In this document: positions 6,602-15,488 of the stretch, piece after piece
Layout: each line of letters starts with the position of its first letter
Numbering within the stretch: the stretch's first letter is position 1
NCBI GenBank assembly: GCA_963977015.1
Contig: CAXBMO010000004.1
Coordinates: 192,001 to 256,000 of the forward strand
DNA: 64,000 bases
Reading direction: 5' to 3'
From: an uncultured bacterium
Lineage (GTDB): Bacteria; Verrucomicrobiota; Verrucomicrobiia; Verrucomicrobiales; DEV007
Made by a program: the position numbers and the translations under genes
The notes under the pieces: generated by a model
What the model was told of the DNA's origin: nothing
Seen by the model: the letters and a program-made list of their open reading frames with translations, nothing else
Database searches by the model: none

Positions 6602-6647
6602 CACGGAGGGACACCCAAAACGAAAATCGACCAGCCCCAAAAGGACT

Positions 6648-7493
6648 CTACCGGTCGAGTTTCGCCCAGCGGGTCAGCCAGACCTGGTAACGATCCCCGA
6701 CACCGGCGCTGTCGGGATCGCTGGAGTAATCAAGCTCAACGTCGCCAACCCCGGGCACGGTTTCCACCACCTCGGCGATCTTCTTGGCAATTAGTGCGTC
6801 TTCGGTCTTCCGAAAATAGCGCACCTCATTGTCGTTGACCCGGCGCACCTCGACGGACACAGCCGGCACGTCGAACCCAGCGGCGATGAGCTCCTTTTTG
6901 ATCTCCTCGCCCAGATCCCGCTGGCTTTCGCTGGCGAGATGCAGATAAACGCGAGAGCGGCGTTCGATTCCCGGCATGGCGCGGTCGAGTTGGGTTTCGA
7001 TGGAGGTCAGGCCGCTGCCGAGCTTGGCGCGAGCTTCCATAATCTTCGCTTCAGTGGCTCCGCTGTTGGAGAGCAGGTTGGCGCGCCACTGGGCGGTGCG
7101 TAGGTCATTGATCACGATCACCAGACTGTCCACTTCGCCGCGCACGTTCCCGAGAATCTCGTTGGTCTCGGCAATTTGCTTCTTGGCACTGGCAGCTTCC
7201 GCACGCACGGTCTTCTCTCGTTCCTCAGCCTCGGCTCTCAACTTCTCCGCATCCTCCGCGCGCTGTTTCAGTTCTGCCTCCCGTTTGCCTCGCTCGGCCT
7301 CATGACGATGAGCGGCGGATACTTGTGAGCGCCAGACCTCCACTTGCGTTGAAGAGTAGAGCAACCAGATGGCGCCAACCGCCAAGGGCAGCGCCGCCAT
7401 CATCAAAACGAACCAGCGCGAACGCTTCTCATTCAATTCCGCGCGATAAATGGACTGCTCGAGTTCGGTGTTTGCTATCCGGATGTCCGTCAT
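6648..7493 (-). CDS. Membrane protein: N-terminal TM, coiled coil, C-terminal LytR_C-like domain
   Basis: TM WFVLMMAALPLAVGAIWLLY followed by an E/K/R/A-rich heptad region. The C-terminus RVYLH...ELIAAGFDV...EVRYF...AKKIA resembles LytR_C. Confidence 0.7.
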   Translation of the reverse strand: MTDIRIANTELEQSIYRAELNEKRSRWFVLMMAALPLAVGAIWLLYSSTQVEVWRSQVSAAHRHEAERGKREAELKQRAEDAEKLRAEAEEREKTVRAEAASAKKQIAETNEILGNVRGEVDSLVIVINDLRTAQWRANLLSNSGATEAKIMEARAKLGSGLTSIETQLDRAMPGIERRSRVYLHLASESQRDLGEEIKKELIAAGFDVPAVSVEVRRVNDNEVRYFRKTEDALIAKKIAEVVETVPGVGDVELDYSSDPDSAGVGDRYQVWLTRWAKLDR

Positions 7494-7518
7494 GTGAATA
7501 TTTCTTACTTCATTGAGT

Positions 7519-8562
7519 TTAAAAGGTGCCGCCGCGCATCAATTGGGCCTTCTTCATCAGGATCGCTCGCTCGCGGGAAGGCAACGAATCGTCCATCAAG
7601 CCGGTCTTCACGTATTTCAGGGTGACGATGCCGGCGACAATCGCGCGAACGTGCTGGCGCAGTACCAAGGCAATGCTTGCCGTAAAGAGTGCCGCCCCGG
7701 CAAGACTGAAGAACAGCGGCTGACTCCAGCGGATCAGCCCCAGAAGCGCGCCCAAAACCAGCAGACCAGCCGCCACCAGCAACAGCTTCTGGATGCACTC
7801 GCGAAAAAGCACCAGGTTCTTCTGCCGCAACTTGAAGACCTGCTCGAGCCGAAGCGCCTGCCTCGCCGAGTCCTCCTCGGTCCAGGGATCCAACTGTTGC
7901 GGCGCGAAAATCGAGGCCGTTGCAGAAGAAGCCGCCAGCTCCACTTTACGCTCCGGGTTGTCCTTTTCCGGGGGTTCCTTGTGATCTTTGCTTTTGCTCT
8001 TCTCGCTCCTCTCGTTGTCAGCGTCGGATGACGCCTCCCCGTCACGCGGAGCCAAATCCCCCTCCTCATCATTGCCCGGCGCCAAGAGGGCCTGAATCTC
8101 ATCCGTCGCAATTTTGAAGACATCTTCGCCCTGCGAAAGGTTCAGGCTGTCGAGCGGACGTTGCAGATTGTGCAACGGCTCAAACTCCTTGAATTCTGAA
8201 TGCTCGTAAAAGCAATGTCGCGCCAGCACCTGCCGAACGCAGGCTCCGCGATGGCTGGCCTCTTTCAGCAGACGAGGCAGGTGGAGCCTGGATACCAACG
8301 GTGAAGCGAGCATATTCTCACTGGTCAACACCATGATGACGGCGGCGGCGTCGATCGCTGCCTTGATCTTCTCGCGACCGTTCACCTTGCGATACTCTCC
8401 CTCGTCGATCCGCGCCACGCCGCATCCCGTTGGCAGCCGCGTGCTCAGGGCCGTCCGAAGCAGATTCGCCCATTGCTCGTCACCGCGACTCGACAAGATG
8501 AGGATCTCGCCCCGATGGCCGTTCTGTGATTCGTTGAAAACGGAAAGGAAGGTGCTTTTCAC
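7519..8562 (-). CDS. TIR-like domain protein with charged linker and two C-terminal TM helices
   Basis: Residues ~19-160 follow the TIR_2 pattern (S..D..W...L; I..AI..A.V..VL.S..LAS; LP.LL; PL.SL). Two hydrophobic helices lie near the C-terminus. GTG start. Confidence 0.7.
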   Translation of the reverse strand: MKSTFLSVFNESQNGHRGEILILSSRGDEQWANLLRTALSTRLPTGCGVARIDEGEYRKVNGREKIKAAIDAAAVIMVLTSENMLASPLVSRLHLPRLLKEASHRGACVRQVLARHCFYEHSEFKEFEPLHNLQRPLDSLNLSQGEDVFKIATDEIQALLAPGNDEEGDLAPRDGEASSDADNERSEKSKSKDHKEPPEKDNPERKVELAASSATASIFAPQQLDPWTEEDSARQALRLEQVFKLRQKNLVLFRECIQKLLLVAAGLLVLGALLGLIRWSQPLFFSLAGAALFTASIALVLRQHVRAIVAGIVTLKYVKTGLMDDSLPSRERAILMKKAQLMRGGTF

Positions 8563-8816
8563 AGTTCGGGGCCACAGGCCAAAGTTGCCTGGAGTTGGGG
8601 GGGGAGAGAGGAGAACTCTTGAATGGACCTTCCACTTTGAACGGCCCGCCGGACAAATCGTTGGTTAGCGTGAAGGACCGGGTGCCTGAGCCACGGTCGA
8701 TCGTCAATCCAAAACGTCATGACTGACACCATAAGAATTCATCCGGGTGCCGTCAATGTTGTTCGGAAATTCGTCAGGATTACCTCTCCCCTCCTCCCCG
8801 CCGGAACAGCGGAAGC

Positions 8817-10094
8817 CTATCCAAACATCCCGGAAATCGGCTTCCCGCGATCGGTGATCGGAACCGGCCGGTCGCCGTCGTAAAGGTTCTTGCGATAGTC
8901 CACTCCGACAGCCGCGCAGATCGTCGCGAAAAAATCGGGAACGCCAACGGGGTTGGAGACGATCTTCTTGGTGAGATCATCCGTCTCGCCCCAGGCACCG
9001 TGATGCTTCAGACCACCACCCGCGAGAACGCAGGTAAAGGCGCTGCCCTGGTGACCGCGTCCGCCACCGCCGTCAAACTCCGGCGGACGACCGAACTCGG
9101 TGGTGATGACGAGAAGCGTCTTGTCGAGAAGCCCCTTCGATTCAAGATCGGTGATGAGAGTCGAAAACGCAGTGTCGAGTTCACGAATCAGCTCGTGCTG
9201 CTGAAGGATGCCCTCGTTGTGGGTATCCCAGCCGGTTCCGTTAAGGAAATTCAGGTTGTGGGAAACTTCGACGAAGCGAACGCCGCGCTCGACAAGACGC
9301 CGACTGAGGAGGCAACGCTGCCCGAATTCTCCACCATAACGGGTTCGCAAATCGGCGGGCTCTTCGTCCAGTTGAAAGACGCGATTGAAGTCCGGCCCGC
9401 TCAACTTGAGACTTTGCTCGATGGCTGCGTCGTAGCTCCGCAGTTCAGGATGGTTGGTCGGATCTGCATTGGCCCGAAGCGCGGCGAGAAACTGTTCGCG
9501 GCGCGTCTGGCGTTCGGCCGTAATTCCTTTGGGCCGCGAGAGCCCCGCCGGACCGCGGCTGGTGTCGGTCAGGTAAAGGTAACCGGATTGCGCTCCGAGA
9601 AACCCGGGTCCGCGGGTCACGTTGGGATAGCCGATGACGACGTAGGGCGGCGCGCCGTCGGCGGCAGCTCCTCGTTCGTGAGCGATGATCGAACCGATTG
9701 ACGGATAGCTGACGGTGCCGCTGATGGGACGTCCGGTGTGCATCCGGTTGGTGGCTGCGGCATGCTCATCGATCACATCATGATGAACGGTTCGCACCGC
9801 GGTGACGCGATCCATAAGGGGAGCCAGATTGGCGAAATGTTCACAAACTTGAACTCCCGGCACGGCGGTATCGATGGCCGGATAGTAGGAGCCGGCTTTT
9901 TTCGCTTTGGGATCTCCGAGCCGTTTGGGATCGAAGGTGTCAATCTGCGCCATGCCGCCTCCGAGCCAGATGGAAATCACGTGTTCGGCATTGCCGCTAA
10001 TGAGCTCATCCGCCGGATTGGCGAGGAGGGAATGGGGAAGCGCCAGTCCTCCCGCAAGGGAAGTTCCGGTTCCGAGAAATTGTCGGCGATTCAT
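8817..10094 (-). CDS. DUF1501 family protein (Tat-exported, sulfatase-like fold)
   Basis: MNRRQFL Tat motif; [34 protein letters not shown] and GRGH motifs. Confidence 0.92.
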
Positions 10095-10132
10095 AGGTGG
10101 GTCGTTTTTCAGGTGAATGATAGGTGGAGGGT

Positions 10133-13100
10133 TCAGGGCATCCAGACAAAATCGCGGTCGTTGATCAAACTCCAGATGACGTCCTCGTAGACTTCGCGCC
10201 AGGCGGCCTGGAGGCGTGGGTCGGGGCTGGGACCGCGCTGAACGCGCTTTTCGACTTTGAGCTGAATGGAATTGGCCTCCGGGCGAACGTGGTTGAGCCA
10301 GGTGGCGAGAGGCAGCGGCTCAGGTTTGGTGGGAATGATTTGTTCATCCCGGGGGACGAGGCGTTCGGCAAAGCCGGCGCGCAGGGCGGGGAGAAAGGCC
10401 TCGCGCTCTGCCGGACGAGGCGCGCGGGTGAGAAAGCGGAGGAACAGCTCCTCCAGCAGGATTTCCGGCGACTCCGCTTCGACGGCGAGGTCGGCCAACT
10501 CACTTTGATGCGAGGCTCGGGACAGCGATTGAACCAGCGTGCCGTTGGCGAGGACGCCCGGTTGCAGCACGTTGGGATCCTCCGCACGTTCGAAGATCGG
10601 CATCTGGCGGGAACCGTTCCAACCGAAGGCTTCGAGCACGTCCACCGTGGTTTGGGCATGCGGGAGCGCCAAGCTGGGGCGATCACGCTCGTTATTGAGA
10701 CTGGCAAACATCCAACCGCGCCGGGGAACTCCGAGCGTCTGTCGCCGTCCGAGGAGGTGGCGGCCATCGTGAACAAAGGTGAGTTCCTCCGAGTCAATCG
10801 GTTTGCCCGTAGAAGCGTGCAACGTGTCCACAACCTGCTCAGCACTGAGGCGGCGGCGGGCGGGAGCCGCGAAAAACCGTTCCGCGGCTGGCAACGAAAC
10901 CAGATCCAGATCGCCGGGTTCGCGTTGATACGCTTCGGAGCTGACAATGAGCCGGATGACGTGCCGCAAATCGTAACCATTGGCGATGAACTCGCCCGCG
11001 AGCCAGTCCAGCAGTTCCGGGTGACTGACGTCGCGGCCTTCCCAGTCGTAAACCGGCTCGACCATCCCCGCTCCCATGAGCCGCTTCCAGGTGCGATTGA
11101 TCAGGACCCGGGAAAACCGGCGATTTTCCGGCGAAGTGACCAAGGCGGCGAAGCGCTCACGCGAGTCACTCGGTTTGGTCACGAGTCTCGCGATGTTCTC
11201 CCCATCGGAAACCCCGGTCGTCGCCGCGAACGGCCATTTTGGAGCGATGACTTCGTCCGGCTTGAGCGTCACCTGGATGAGCGATTCCCGGCCCTTGTTT
11301 TCGAAGAACCCGGCCGGAACCCGGCTCGTTTCCGGAACCTGTGTCGGCTTGCGTCCCAGCATGGCCGCCAGGGAGTACAAATCGCGCTGGGTGGTGCTGT
11401 GATAGGGGGAATCGTGACAACGGGCGCACTGCAATTCGATGCCGAGGAAGGCCGAGGCAACAATGTGGCCCTTGGCCGCGAACGGCGCGTCATTTTCCGC
11501 CGCAAGCGCGAACCCGGCACTGCCGCCGTGAGCGGAATCTCCCCGCATCAGGAGCAGTTCCGTGACCATCCGGTCGAGCGGCTTGCCGTCACGAAGGGAA
11601 TCGTAGAGAAACCAGCGAAACGGCCCGGTGCTGTTGAGCGACGGATTGATCAGGGTGGGGTTTTCCGCGAGGAGATCGAGCCACTCACTCATCTGGTGAT
11701 CGGCCCAGCGTTCGTCGGCGAGCAGGCGGTCGATCAGACGATTTCGCTTGTCCGGGCTTGGATCGTCCAAAAACGCGCGGACCTCGCCGGCAGTCGGCGG
11801 AAGACCGATGATGTCGAGGGTCACACGGCGAAGGAAGGCTTCGTCGCTGGTCCGCGGAGTTTTGGCGACTTTCTCCGGACTCACTGGCGGAGCCGGCCAC
11901 TTGGCGCCTTTCTGAATCCAAGCCTCAAGCGCCGCGATTTGTGCTTCGGGCAGGGGATCGCCCGTCGGCGGCATGATCAGATCGTCGTCATCGCTGCGGA
12001 GACGCAGGATCAGTTCGCTGGATTCCGGATCGCCGGGTACGAGCGCCGGGATTTCCGAGTCGCCTCCGCTCAGGGCGGCCTCAAGGCTGTCCAACTTCAA
12101 GCCACCCTTTTCTTTATCGCCGTGGCAGCGGAAACAGGCTTCGCGAAGAACGCTCAAAACCTCGTGATCAAAGGTTTCGCCATCTTCAGAGGAAGAGGAT
12201 CCAGCCAAGCTGGCCGCCTCAATGCGTGCATCAAGAAAGGCGTCGACAGGATGCCCGGCACTTGGCGGTGCCGGCGGAGGATTCTGGGAAACCCATTCCG
12301 CCGCGAGCTGATGGCGCTTCTTCCAAAACTCATCCTGCGATCGGGATGCAGTCCGTCGATTGCGATCGTCCAACGCCGAAAGTTCGGATTCCAGTTGCGC
12401 GAGAACGGGTTCAACCGCCGCATCGGTCAGCGGCAGGGGCGACTCTCCACCTGCGCGGAGGACGGCAAAGGAATCTCCGCTCGCCGACTCGATCGCGACG
12501 CAAACCTCGCCCGTTTCGGTCCGCTGATTCTTGCCCCCGGCAACCAGTTCCAGCACCACGCGGGAAGGGCCATCCGCCCCGGTTGGAAGATCGACCATGC
12601 CGAACACCTCCTGGTGATGGTAGTCCTTGATGCGAACGCCGGGATGAGGCGGTTCTGCCAGTGGCGTGACCGGCTCGTGGCCGTTCGGCGTCGAGGCGCG
12701 AGCGGGCTTGGTCTCGGCGACGAGTTTGCCGTCGATCCAGAGCCGCGCCAGGCCGCGGGTTCGCAGCAGAAAACGCCGCTGTCCCTCCGGCAGTTCCACG
12801 TCCGCCGCCATCCGAATCAGCACCGGCGCTTTCCACGCACCCCGAATCCCCCAGCTGTCGTAGCGCACAGGCACGCGGGGAAGCAGGAACACGTCGCTCG
12901 TCCAACGCAGACTTTCTTCCGGAAGCGCGACGGCGTTGGGCCAGCGATTGTAGGTGGGCAGACCTTCGCTGAATTGAACGAGGACTTCCCCTGCTTCGAT
13001 CGGTCCCAAATCCGGCATCTCCGCGACGGCGGGCAACACCACCTGCGGCCCGTCCTTTCTCAGGAATCGGCCGGCCATCTCCTCGTCCGAGAGGCGAGAC

Positions 13101-13846
13101 CGGTGAATCGCGACCATGTCGAGCAACCCCTGAAAGCTGTTGACGGAACTCCCGTTCAAGGCGGAACCAATCCAGACATCGTCGTCATCGACCACAGGCG
13201 GATCGGTGGTCGGGCCATCGACGTCCCATTTGCCTTCCGTGGGCAGCCCGTCGATCCAGCCGCGCATCGTCTCCGGCTTCCCAAATTCATAAGCCAGGGC
13301 GATGTGATGCCAACCAGTCGAGATCTGGAACGCCGCCTCCGAGTTCCAGCGATGCCAGTGCTTCTGTCCAGTGTCGGAGATGCTGGTAAAGAGAAATCCC
13401 AATTGAGCCAGGCCTCCGTTGGCGCCGACGACCCGCATCGACCAGTTCTGGTTGTCCCGGCTGAAACGCGGATTGTGGGTGCGGCCCTTGCCGACGACGT
13501 AGGCAGGTTGACCGGGCCGGAGCGCTTCGACCAGCACCCAAGCTTCGAGCGTGATCGCGTCGCCATTGGTGAAATCGTACTCGCTCTTCGGCCCCGGATC
13601 CTTGACCTCGAAACGGGCGCCGTTGCCTTTCAGCTGCACCGCGGTGTTGTCACTTTCGAGATCGGGGAACTCCGGCGGACGCGGCCCGTCTTGATCGCGA
13701 ATCACGCCGCCGCGTGGAATCAACGGAGCGGGCTCTTCGGAATTGAAATCCCATTTCGCGGCAAGGTGCGAATCTGCGGCATTCACCTGAGACGCACAAA
13801 AGGCGATGAGGAGGATACAGTAACTGGCTGAGAAGAACTTGGTCAT
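10133..13846 (-). CDS. LamG + planctomycete cytochrome c + DUF1549/DUF1553 (PSD1) protein
   Basis: Signal peptide; LamG-like WHHIAL region; heme motifs CFRCH and [30 protein letters not shown]. Confidence 0.92.
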
Positions 13847-13865
13847 GGGTTTTGGAGAAAAAGGG

Positions 13866-15488
13866 TTAGTTGGAGGGCAGGCCGACGATCACCAACGGAT
13901 CCACCTGGTTGTCGTCGTCCATCGCGTCCTGAAAGAAGAGTGTTTGCACCGTCTCGTGCGGGCCGTAGCCGAGATCCGAGAGATCGATCCCGACCGCGAT
14001 GGCCTGGAAACGCAGTTGAGAAACGCTGGGCTTGACCGGCGAAGACTCCAGGTTGGCGAGAGAGGGAACCGGCTCCTCGCTTTGATACAAAATGCGACGG
14101 GAAACCGACAGGGCATCGGCCGAAGCCACCATCAAATCGTAGCGCGGCACGGTATGCGATCGCAGCCGGTCCTCCCAGGGCAGCGGGCTCACGTGAAAGG
14201 CGTCGCCCTCCGGCGGGTTTGACTGGTTCTGGATCTCGAAAAAGACGATATCGGGACCGGGACCATTCTTCACGGGTTGATGGAAGCGAACTGAGAAACC
14301 CGGCGTCTCGTTCGGATCAAAGGGCCCCGAAAGCGGCTGCGGACTTCCGCCCGGATTGATGACCCCGGTATCGAATCGGAAATCTTCCAACAACGTTGCG
14401 CGCCGTTCCGGCAGCCGGGTTCCTTCCGCTCCCACGAGGTGCCCGATGAGATGCTTCGTCGTTCCACCGTGAAACCCGGTCAGCTCAATCGGGATCAGCG
14501 ACTCGGCGGAGTAATGATGCTCCTTGCCGCCCCGCTGCACCGTGACACCGGCCAAGGTTTTCGCGAGCCCGTCAGGTCCCGCTTCCGCTTGATAGGAAAT
14601 CACCCGGTCCGGCAGGCCATGCCGGTAGGGCTTCGGCGAAAAGGGAACCGCGGCGGTGAAGCCATACCCAATCATCCGAGCCTCTCCATCCGTCAGGTGA
14701 AGTTTTTCGGCGGCGTTCTCCCCGCCGGGATGAACGTCGGCAGCACCTTCGACAACCTGCACTTCCGTTTCGCTCGCTTCCGAGACATTCACGAAAAAAC
14801 GCGTCCCCCGGTCCACCACGCGACCGTTCGGCGTGTCGACCCGGAATCCTTCGGCTCCATCCGGGGCATGAACCGAACAGCGCCCGACATCGAGCGCCAA
14901 GTGATCGTCGGAGAGGACCCGGAACACGGCGGGAGCCTCGACAATCGTCTTCGCTCCGGCCGGAAAGGCCAATTCCACCGATCCGGAAACGAGGGTGTAG
15001 TCCCGCTGCAATTCCGGGTTCGACTTCACTGACGGAGTCCGCTCACCGAAAAAATTGGCTTGTGCCAGACTCGAAAACTGAACCCGGCTTGTGGGGGAAC
15101 CCGCCTCGTCCGCTTCGTGGGTCATGAGGAACGCCACCATCAACAACGCGGCGACCGCCCATCCACCGAACTGGAGAATCTGCGGGAACAGGGCGATTTT
15201 CGAAGTCGCGGAGCCCTCCGGCTGAAGCCGCTTGATGACGCCCGCCGAAAAATCCTCTCCGCTATCGGGAAGGCACTGAAGGGTTTCCTCAACGAAGGCA
15301 TCCGACGAATCCCGCGTCGCCAGCACGCCAAGTAGACGATGCGTTTGAAACGTATCCGTGGCGAGCTCGAGGAGCTGTTCGTCGTCTGCCATCAGCCGCT
15401 GCAACTCGGCAATCCCGGCTTCATCCAGTTCACCTTCCAGGTAATCGGACCAGAGTTCGTCAAAGCGTTCTTCGTTCGGATTCGTCAT
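13866..15488 (-). CDS. FecR-domain anti-sigma factor
   Basis: N-terminal anti-sigma helices, one TM, and FecR motif GFRVDTPNGRVVDRGTRF. Overlaps the sigma factor stop. Confidence 0.85.
   Translation of the reverse strand: MTNPNEERFDELWSDYLEGELDEAGIAELQRLMADDEQLLELATDTFQTHRLLGVLATRDSSDAFVEETLQCLPDSGEDFSAGVIKRLQPEGSATSKIALFPQILQFGGWAVAALLMVAFLMTHEADEAGSPTSRVQFSSLAQANFFGERTPSVKSNPELQRDYTLVSGSVELAFPAGAKTIVEAPAVFRVLSDDHLALDVGRCSVHAPDGAEGFRVDTPNGRVVDRGTRFFVNVSEASETEVQVVEGAADVHPGGENAAEKLHLTDGEARMIGYGFTAAVPFSPKPYRHGLPDRVISYQAEAGPDGLAKTLAGVTVQRGGKEHHYSAESLIPIELTGFHGGTTKHLIGHLVGAEGTRLPERRATLLEDFRFDTGVINPGGSPQPLSGPFDPNETPGFSVRFHQPVKNGPGPDIVFFEIQNQSNPPEGDAFHVSPLPWEDRLRSHTVPRYDLMVASADALSVSRRILYQSEEPVPSLANLESSPVKPSVSQLRFQAIAVGIDLSDLGYGPHETVQTLFFQDAMDDDNQVDPLVIVGLPSN

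Follow-up and report, generated by a model that had tools for sequence, protein, structure and literature searches.

To our knowledge, the functions of bacterial TIR domains worked out so far all rest on cleavage of nicotinamide adenine dinucleotide (NAD) by a conserved glutamate (Glu). TIR signalling of the scaffold type is regarded as a feature of animal immunity; in Hydra, a TIR protein pairs with a separate leucine-rich-repeat (LRR) membrane protein. Here we describe a pair of genes in a 64,000-nucleotide stretch of DNA (the window; positions 192,001 to 256,000 of the forward strand of contig CAXBMO010000004.1, assembly GCA_963977015.1) from an uncultured bacterium of the Verrucomicrobiota. 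The first gene encodes a TIR protein (protein A) that is predicted to be membrane-anchored and to lack the catalytic Glu, and the second encodes a partner (protein B) predicted to reach across the periplasm.

Several described systems combine parts of this kind. The AC1 system presumably corresponds to the one that DefenseFinder names Rst_2TM_1TM_TIR. It belongs to the defence hotspot of the P2-like phage AC1 and joins a TIR protein to two transmembrane (TM) proteins, which the authors propose to act at the membrane (Rousset et al. 2022, PMC9122126). In a 2025 preprint, Thoeris has been extended to TIR genes that stand beside SLATT and other TM effectors; those TIRs make signals of the cyclic ADP-ribose (cADPR) type and are therefore enzymatic (10.64898/2025.12.03.692087). 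TIR and SLATT domains are also placed in NTPase-centred conflict systems (Kaur et al. 2020, PMC7159879). The Hydra TIR protein is described as membrane-anchored and without a ligand-binding domain (PMC7075850). On the side of the cell wall, proteins with a LytR_C domain act in wall homeostasis and bind one another through that domain; VirR, the LytR_C protein Rv0431, binds LCP proteins in this way and affects wall integrity (PMC11832169).

The pair studied here consists of two co-oriented open reading frames (ORFs) on the minus strand, where all its features given below also lie. Gene 1 (7519..8562, with its stop codon at 7519-7521) has a GTG start and encodes the 347 amino acids of protein A, and gene 2 (6648..7493) has an ATG start and encodes the 281 amino acids of protein B. 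A spacer of 25 base pairs (bp; 7494..7518) separates them, and the spacers at homologous loci measure roughly 10-45 bp, judged from coordinates. Gene 1 is present as a single copy in the 6.9-Mb genome.

A TIR domain and its catalytic-glutamate column

The Pfam score of protein A was unconvincing alone (TIR_2, PF13676: 14.5 bits, E 0.053, with a curated cut-off of 28 bits), and its TIR identity was settled by phmmer links, by the confidence of the AlphaFold2 (AF2) model and by structural matches. An exhaustive phmmer search covering 1.84 billion representatives returned 1253 matches at E<=1e-3 and 32 at E<=1e-10, and reached many TIR_2 proteins at E 1e-10 to 1e-12. TIR_2 was detected at E<=0.01 in 42 of the 47 best matches scanned, many of which are STAND, ROCO, TPR or multi-TIR proteins, and the clade members P0007, P0009 and P0013 score 33.5, 38.8 and 31.2 bits for TIR_2. 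The AF2 model, built from 100 aligned sequences, has a mean predicted local distance difference test score (pLDDT) of 85, rising to ~97 over residues 20-160. When this model was searched against 48,161 PDB chains, the first seven rows were all TIR domains: RPS4/RRS1 (Z 14.9, root-mean-square deviation 2.3, 136 residues aligned), RPP1 (13.9), MAL (13.2), Hydra TRR-2 (13.0), IL-1RAcPb (12.7), AtTIR (12.5) and TIRAP (12.4). SARM1, MyD88 (Z 12.2) and AbTIR come after these, interspersed with flavodoxin-like proteins. Foldseek against the PDB gave weak rows only for the model, none at E<=0.001; phmmer against PDB sequences gave no match, and a word-index homology search recovered only gene 1 itself and, for gene 2, one to three relatives. 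Overall, the N-terminal domain of protein A (residues 17-160; 8083..8514) is, by these models and homology links, a genuine though divergent TIR domain. Its divergence includes the loss of aromatic residues that are conserved in its family (W52I, Y24S, F84M, F89L).

To locate the catalytic position, the 100-sequence alignment was turned into a profile and matched to PDB sequences. Three Glu residues that we take to be catalytic, those in QKELDGL of PdTIR, ARELDGL of the 4lzp chain and EYELNG of the 7uxr TIR domain protein, all fall in the column of His94 of protein A (codon CAC, 8281..8283), where the profile consensus has the 'e' of '..neLPpLL' and protein A carries the motif LASPLVSRLHLPRLL. 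Seventeen rows of the 100-row alignment combine a TIR domain with two TM helices (TIR-2TM), and in these the column holds Lys ten times, Arg five times, and His and Ser once each. The other 83 rows have Glu in 77; the six exceptions are two fragments without a TIR domain (P0023, P0042), two further TIR-2TM members with Arg (P0065, P0092), one Gln (P0066) and one Tyr (P0098). With 16 genomic members added, the family counts 33 (25 Lys, six Arg, one His, one Ser), and with P0028 (Lys), P0065 and P0092 it counts 36 (26 Lys, eight Arg, one His, one Ser). Glu is thus found in 77 of 79 related TIR_2 domains and in none of the 36 family members, with the alignment uncertain for the lone Ser member, which has a five-residue deletion at this column.

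When family and relatives were compared column by column, position 94 emerged as the sharpest difference in the domain (Lys in 25 of 33 versus Glu in 77 of 79). Most positions of the TIR core are common to both groups, and the box motifs and the hydrophobic core are kept. The same comparison revealed no family-specific conserved acidic residue elsewhere in the TIR domain. The residue at position 94 is basic in 35 of the 36 members, which argues for selection and not decay, as a functionless site would be expected to drift. In a tree of 114 TIR segments, the 33 family rows together with P0065 and P0092 formed one set of 35 (support of 95 in the Shimodaira-Hasegawa-like approximate likelihood ratio test, SH-aLRT). 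The family thereby forms one clade, and a single origin of the Glu replacement is not contradicted.

The TIR domain is followed by a disordered acidic linker (residues 161-228; 7879..8082; pLDDT ~50, net charge -8), which differs in length among homologs and is gapped in the alignment, and then by a predicted helical hairpin (residues 229-323; 7594..7878) composed of a cytoplasmic stalk, TM1 (~255-280), a short periplasmic turn, TM2 (~282-302) and a second stalk. Hydropathy backs both TM segments, and AF2 places helices at 229-277 and 281-323 with pLDDT 91-98, plus a final helix at 329-344. The hairpin has basic residues next to either end, all on one side of the membrane, which implies that the TIR domain and the tail are cytoplasmic and that only the few residues of the turn are periplasmic. 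The tail (residues 317-347; 7522..7614) carries the conserved motif Y-x-[RK]-[TS]-G-L-x-D-x-x-L-P-x-R-Q-R, whose P328 and R330 do not vary and whose G321 and D324 are kept by 32 of 33 aligned members. Hairpin and tail form a family-specific module for which Pfam has no model. SLATT models gave no match at E<=1 for gene 1 and none at E<=0.01 for 16 clade members, and one gene 1 homolog reached 22.1 bits for DUF6703, whose cut-off is 23.8.

These results bear out much of a prior sequence-only reading of this DNA, which had proposed two co-oriented genes 25 bp apart, with the first coding for an N-terminal TIR fold, a charged disordered linker and two TM helices, and had placed His94 at the position of the catalytic Glu. 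It had also raised the possibility that the Glu is present elsewhere in the domain; neither the column in 36 members nor a conserved acidic substitute provided one, as judged by alignment.

An Atlas feature search with the hairpin returned unnamed clusters (0.88-0.89) and a CyanoTRADDas_TM cluster (0.81, within the chance range), and was not used as evidence. Hydrophobic segments after the TIR domain were also seen in Glu-bearing proteins of the same TIR_2 subgroup (P0034, P0036, P0040, P0063, P0064, P0075, P0077, P0101 and P0108), so membrane anchoring per se is not unique to this clade, and membrane-anchored bacterial TIRs may make up a wider, undescribed group.

The partner protein and the conserved pairing

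The gene 2 family is likewise without a Pfam model. A full-length alignment was obtained for 19 members, which are 29-41% identical to the window protein. Protein B begins with a putative cytoplasmic peptide (residues 1-26; 7416..7493) bearing the motif N-x-[DE]-L-E-Q-x-[LI]-[FY]; N8 and Q13 never vary across the 19 members, and L11, E12 and R26 hardly do. A single TM helix follows (about residues 26-48; 7350..7415; hydropathy 2.21; P36, W43 and L44 invariant in the 19 members), and the basic residues in front of it imply an N-in topology. Next comes a coiled-coil-like helix of ~120 residues, presumably periplasmic and rich in Ala, Glu and Arg (about residues 49-172; 6978..7349), in which hydrophobic residues occupy 0.63 of the a/d positions versus 0.39 overall; Pfam yielded only coiled-coil noise there.

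The C-terminal alpha/beta domain (residues 173-281; 6651..6977) is LytR_C-like through below-threshold similarity in its relatives. LytR_C is the only family that recurs among these, at E<=0.01 in seven of the 19 (best E 4.1e-4, below threshold), with 20.0 bits in P0003. Two LytR_C clusters align to the domain's Atlas model, with template-modelling scores of 0.62 and 0.64, and Foldseek lists the C-terminal domain of Rv0431 (2m5y) at E 0.23. The AF2 model was mediocre (pLDDT 68, from five sequences only). In a Ser/Thr kinase of genome G034, a domain of the same type lies outside the membrane: this 814-residue protein (L016, G034:C24, 322-2763, plus strand) has a TM helix at 354-378, the LytR_C-like domain at 395-501 and then an RCC1-like region. 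We therefore regard the domain of protein B as probably LytR_C-like and extracytoplasmic, with membership in the family not proven. For this gene, the sequence-only reading was right about one TM helix and a long coiled coil; the LytR_C-like domain that it also named persists as a weak recurrent similarity, with no family-level match. An Atlas feature search with the C-terminal domain returned unnamed clusters (0.90-0.91). One homolog, P0155, departs abruptly from the family alignment at both termini and is probably a frameshifted gene call.

The two genes form a conserved unit of the Verrucomicrobia, and their pairing is complete wherever it was checked. Among 134 genomes of the window's taxonomic family, full-length homologs of both genes occur only in G000, G101 and G102, where they are adjacent and co-oriented; in G102 the neighbours of the pair, which include an ABC transporter, coaX and a ROK kinase, are unrelated genes. 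In a phylum-wide sample of 401 genomes, a full-length gene was found in the window's genome only. A pattern scan using a subgroup alignment, with one genome taken per species, yielded 17 loci, whose record titles read Chthoniobacter, Chthoniobacterales, Chthoniobacteraceae, Verrucomicrobiae or Verrucomicrobiota; all named carrier records belong to the Verrucomicrobiota. A gene 2 homolog lies directly downstream on the same strand in 17 of 17 (E 1e-19 to 7e-75); two of these loci end at a contig edge, and in L046 gene 1 is split in two frames.

To examine one carrier's family more closely, we searched its 151 genomes with both profiles. The gene 1 profile matched 28 (E<=1e-30) and the gene 2 profile 26 (E<=1e-20); all 26 fall within the 28, and by coordinates every pair is adjacent. 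Most of the 17 loci are probably among these 26 genomes, and the counts therefore overlap. The co-occurrence of the two genes, as anticipated from the sequence, thus held at 17 of 17 loci, in 26 of 26 genomes of this family and in three of three in the window's own. The flanks vary by locus and are mostly housekeeping genes (a tadA-like deaminase, thioredoxin, RF-2, MgtE, glycosyltransferases, LigD, purK, RNase HII), and no third gene was widely shared among the loci, as far as crude gene calls, which picked antisense shadow ORFs in GC-rich loci, can tell.

The two genomes that matched the gene 1 profile only are G552 and G684. The match in G684 is a distant two-gene relative (L048, G684:C17, 649-2915, minus strand). 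Its 299-residue protein aligns to the gene 1 family over 268 columns, hairpin included (hhalign probability 99.7%, E 1.8e-25), and scores 47.4 bits for TIR_2; it reads 'ETEFP' where the family has 'KAKLP' and lacks the tail motif. The stop codon of this gene overlaps the start of a gene for a 457-residue protein with an N-terminal peptide, a TM helix and a coiled coil, followed by a domain alignable to the LytR_C-like one of the family (probability 91.7%, E 7.9e-7) and by an extra C-terminal region of ~110 residues with no assigned family. A label of SPOR-like, given to that region by eye, was dropped, as Pfam gave no match at E<=0.05. No second copy of the Glu-bearing partner was found in 301 genomes of its order. 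From this single case, the two-gene design would seem to predate the loss of the Glu.

The match in G552 (L049, G552:C24, 1877-4499) is a short, Glu-bearing, TIR-only TIR_2 protein, close kin of the family TIR, which overlaps or abuts a zinc-ribbon NACHT/STAND protein in what looks like a conflict-system arrangement. Elsewhere, gene 1 homologs were split, stop-interrupted or divided across contigs beside an intact gene 2 (L046, 3965-4836; G554:C4; G631:C407; G632:C108/C156; and G630:C8, with a TGA within the match); these broken copies, in five genomes, could be pseudogenes or assembly errors. A pattern scan with a four-sequence alignment found nothing in genome contigs and, in metagenome contigs, only the scaffold L030, one stretch of which matches the whole of gene 1 at 100% identity. 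Of the words sampled from the locus, up to about half occur in DNA runs labelled as marine metagenome.

Proposed envelope sensing and alternative readings

The reading we favour, at a probability of roughly 40%, is that the pair forms an envelope-sensing membrane unit whose TIR domain acts through regulated assembly or binding, without NADase chemistry. A Toll-like envelope sensor of this kind and a TIR-gated two-TM pore had both been put forward as possibilities in the sequence-only reading. Protein B would sit N-in, with its coiled coil of ~120 residues keeping the LytR_C-like domain away from the membrane, on the periplasmic side and close to the wall. Protein A would be anchored by its hairpin, with the TIR domain, on its flexible acidic linker, and the conserved tail facing the cytoplasm. 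A change at the wall or in the periplasm might be sensed by the distal domain of protein B and passed on through contacts of its TM helix and N-terminal peptide with the hairpin and tail of protein A, altering the self-association of the TIR domains. The TIR domain would then serve as an assembly or binding module, like the TIR adaptors of animals, and not as an NAD-cleaving enzyme. The contact between the proteins, the cue that is sensed, the assembly role of the TIR domain and the output are what we infer in this scheme.

A complex of the two proteins, which the sequence-only reading had put forward for modelling, was predicted from full-length protein A and residues 1-110 of protein B, each with its own alignment. 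The median score was 0.45 (runs of 0.01, 0.57 and 0.45), with the best of three controls at 0.00; the runs share at least 62% of their contacts, and the partner has a pLDDT of at least 77. Of 157 solved complexes, 116 reach the mark used for a complex, as do 2 of 215 mismatches; at scores <=0.60 it is reached by only 18 of the 157 and by both of the passing mismatches. The models thus give weak support to a physical contact between the two proteins, a slight supplement to the genomic pairing and no proof.

Several points weigh against envelope sensing by such a unit. Nearly all characterised bacterial TIR proteins sit in conflict systems. The support for the complex is weak, with one of three runs at 0.01, and the loss of the catalytic Glu is read from an alignment. 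The relative in G684 keeps its Glu, so an inactive TIR is no requirement of the architecture as such. The LytR_C model (PF13399, cut-off 22.2 bits) has no match in the window's own protein B, and at E<=0.001 Foldseek retrieved no PDB entry for its C-terminal domain; the best PDB rows for the model of that domain, all POTRA-like (Z<=6.7), lie within the noise range of the tool. Finally, the patchy presence of the pair (26 of 151, 3 of 134 and 1 of 401 genomes) fits an accessory system, for example one of defence, at least equally well.

A bolder version, which we consider doubtful, would make the pair a split Toll-like receptor: the first prokaryotic switch based on non-enzymatic TIR assembly, coupled by its partner to the state of the wall and descended from Glu-bearing membrane TIRs such as the G684 variant.

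Phage defence by abortive infection is the strongest rival, although we think it rather unlikely. Protein B would detect an attack on the envelope, the TIR domains of protein A would cluster, and the hairpins would breach the membrane and stop the infected cell, making the pair a fused, two-gene counterpart of the AC1 system with its TIR protein and two TM proteins. Indeed, the unit is patchy and accessory-like, found at differing chromosomal sites; a Glu-bearing two-gene relative exists in G684; and the broken gene 1 copies in five genomes could mean turnover of a defence gene, or assembly error. TIR domains and two-TM effectors are typical of CBASS, Pycsar and Thoeris (PMC9122126; 10.64898/2025.12.03.692087), and the AC1 TIR protein with its two TM proteins protects against phages (PMC9122126). 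The genomic context does not support this rival. No defence or mobile genes were found in the window or in G102, nor, with few exceptions, among 40 flanking ORFs of 11 loci; the exceptions are one Uma2 nuclease-like gene, one SNF2 helicase, a LigD pair and two glycosyltransferases with a conflict-system GT4 sub-hit. The PADLOC matches were only weak ones, gene 1 to ThsB1 (E 0.0077) and gene 2 to LmuB (E 0.073), and tblastn searches of 50,697 phage and 72,556 plasmid records were without a match. A defence island, which had been considered when the pair was first noticed, was accordingly not seen at these loci. In addition, known defence TIRs depend on the catalytic Glu, and the aligned column is without it in 36 of 36 members.

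We judge it improbable that the TIR domain is a receptor, or an enzyme of altered chemistry, in which an anionic ligand, such as an NAD-derived signal from other TIR proteins of the same cell, is bound by the Lys, Arg or His of the former active site and gates the hairpin while protein B tunes or localises the complex. The basic residue in 35 of 36 members would suit this role, as would the retention of the rest of the pocket-forming core. Carrier genomes do hold other Glu-bearing TIR_2 proteins, such as the G552 TIR beside its NACHT protein. However, the window's TIR domain is itself without several of the family-conserved aromatics listed above, no signal-producing gene is linked to the pair at any locus examined, and TIR domains are not known to serve as ligand receptors, although no search aimed at this was made. 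Nucleotide sensing is described for SLOG and other related Rossmann-like folds (PMC7159879).

Least probable is a structural scaffold of the envelope or division machinery without signalling, in which protein B is a periplasmic strut like FtsB, FtsL or FtsQ, protein A its anchor and the TIR domain only a means of oligomerising: the architecture of protein B (N-terminal peptide, TM helix, coiled coil, small alpha/beta domain) does resemble that of bitopic proteins of the divisome, the weak POTRA-like rows include the periplasmic domain of FtsQ (6h9n_A, Z 5.5), a weak DivIC match was obtained for one homolog (E 0.0054) and the neighbours are housekeeping genes, but all these fold similarities are inside the noise range, a core role ill fits presence in 26 of 151 and 3 of 134 genomes, and anchoring needs no TIR domain.

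The surroundings of the pair in the window are those of an ordinary chromosomal region. The neighbours include a PAS histidine kinase, a GH88-like hydrolase, a PL14-like protein, a DUF1501 protein, a PSCyt1/PSCyt2/PSD1 protein, a FecR-like protein, an ABC transporter, panC, tyrA, aroA and cmk, and GC content is flat over the locus. Directly upstream of the pair, on the minus strand, lies a run typical of Planctomycetes and Verrucomicrobia (8817-15488), made of the DUF1501 protein (with a Tat-like signal), a 1237-residue Laminin_G_3/PSCyt1/PSCyt2/PSD1 protein and the FecR-like protein. In the 254-bp gap upstream of gene 1, a promoter-like site (TTGACG, 17 nucleotides, TATGGT; 8728..8756, minus strand) is a weak consensus match only, with one found versus 0.7 expected in shuffles. 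A terminator-like hairpin, also a weak consensus match, lies directly 3' of the stop codon of gene 2 (6633..6647, minus strand); four such sites occur in the region versus 2.9 expected, and its position alone is suggestive.

Comparison with described systems

Bacterial TIR NADases (Thoeris ThsB, the CBASS and Pycsar effectors, AbTIR, PdTIR and BtpA) share the fold of protein A and are connected to it through TIR_2 homology via intermediates. They differ in the active site and in their company. NADases and signal generators of the ThsB, AbTIR and SARM1 type have their catalytic Glu in the alphaC region, where protein A aligns with His94 and the 36 members have Lys, Arg or His and, once, Ser. 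The TIR domain here is fused to a membrane hairpin, with neither a linked cyclase nor a linked effector that has a known ligand-binding domain. In Thoeris, the TIR gene stands beside an effector that binds its signal (SLOG, Macro, SLATT), whereas the neighbour here is a TM, coiled-coil and LytR_C-like protein without any such Pfam domain. CBASS and Pycsar require a linked nucleotide cyclase, and none was found among the window neighbours or in the 40 flanking ORFs of 11 loci. SLATT and other two-TM pore effectors of nucleotide-signalling defence systems likewise combine a two-helix hairpin and cytoplasmic helical extensions with a signalling domain; no SLATT match was obtained here at the E values given above.

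AC1 resembles the pair in having a TIR element, a two-TM element and a one-TM element in one small operon (PMC9122126). Compared by description only, AC1 comprises three genes on a prophage, whereas the pair comprises two chromosomal genes, with no prophage context seen and with the TIR domain fused to the two-TM part. The one-TM protein here also carries a long periplasmic coiled coil and a LytR_C-like domain, and the phage collection gave no match. With LytR_C proteins, which include the C-termini of LCP enzymes and the solo-domain VirR and Cei proteins of mycobacteria, protein B appears to share a small, membrane-anchored, extracytoplasmic alpha/beta domain. It differs from them in scoring below the Pfam threshold, in its diderm host, in having no LCP catalytic domain and in the coiled-coil stalk of ~120 residues that precedes the domain. 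The gene 2 family thereby adds a weak link between LytR_C-like domains and the biology of the diderm envelope.

The favoured reading would also give a likeness in design to the Toll-like receptors and adaptors of animals, with a sensing part outside, a membrane span, and a cytoplasmic TIR domain that works without NADase chemistry. As in Hydra, the sensing and TIR parts would reside on two proteins, and MAL, MyD88 and Hydra TRR-2 are among the best structural matches of protein A. The pair has no LRR or immunoglobulin ectodomain and no known downstream kinases or death domains, and the likeness is one of design and not of descent, as the nearest sequence relatives are bacterial TIR_2 domains. 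In line with the sequence-only reading, we found no published description of a system with this architecture, in coverage that is without most subscription journals and supplements. Two protein families without Pfam models are defined here, the hairpin-plus-tail module and the partner protein. The pair makes testable the idea of non-enzymatic TIR signalling in bacteria and its rise from enzymatic ancestors, with the Glu-bearing relative in G684 as a natural comparison for the Glu-less clade. Should the pair indeed be a split Toll-like receptor, the passage from enzymatic to scaffold TIR signalling would have a living example. Set beside the systems described so far, what appears new is a TIR membrane module with a conserved, family-wide replacement of the catalytic Glu, joined to an obligate partner predicted to span the periplasm.

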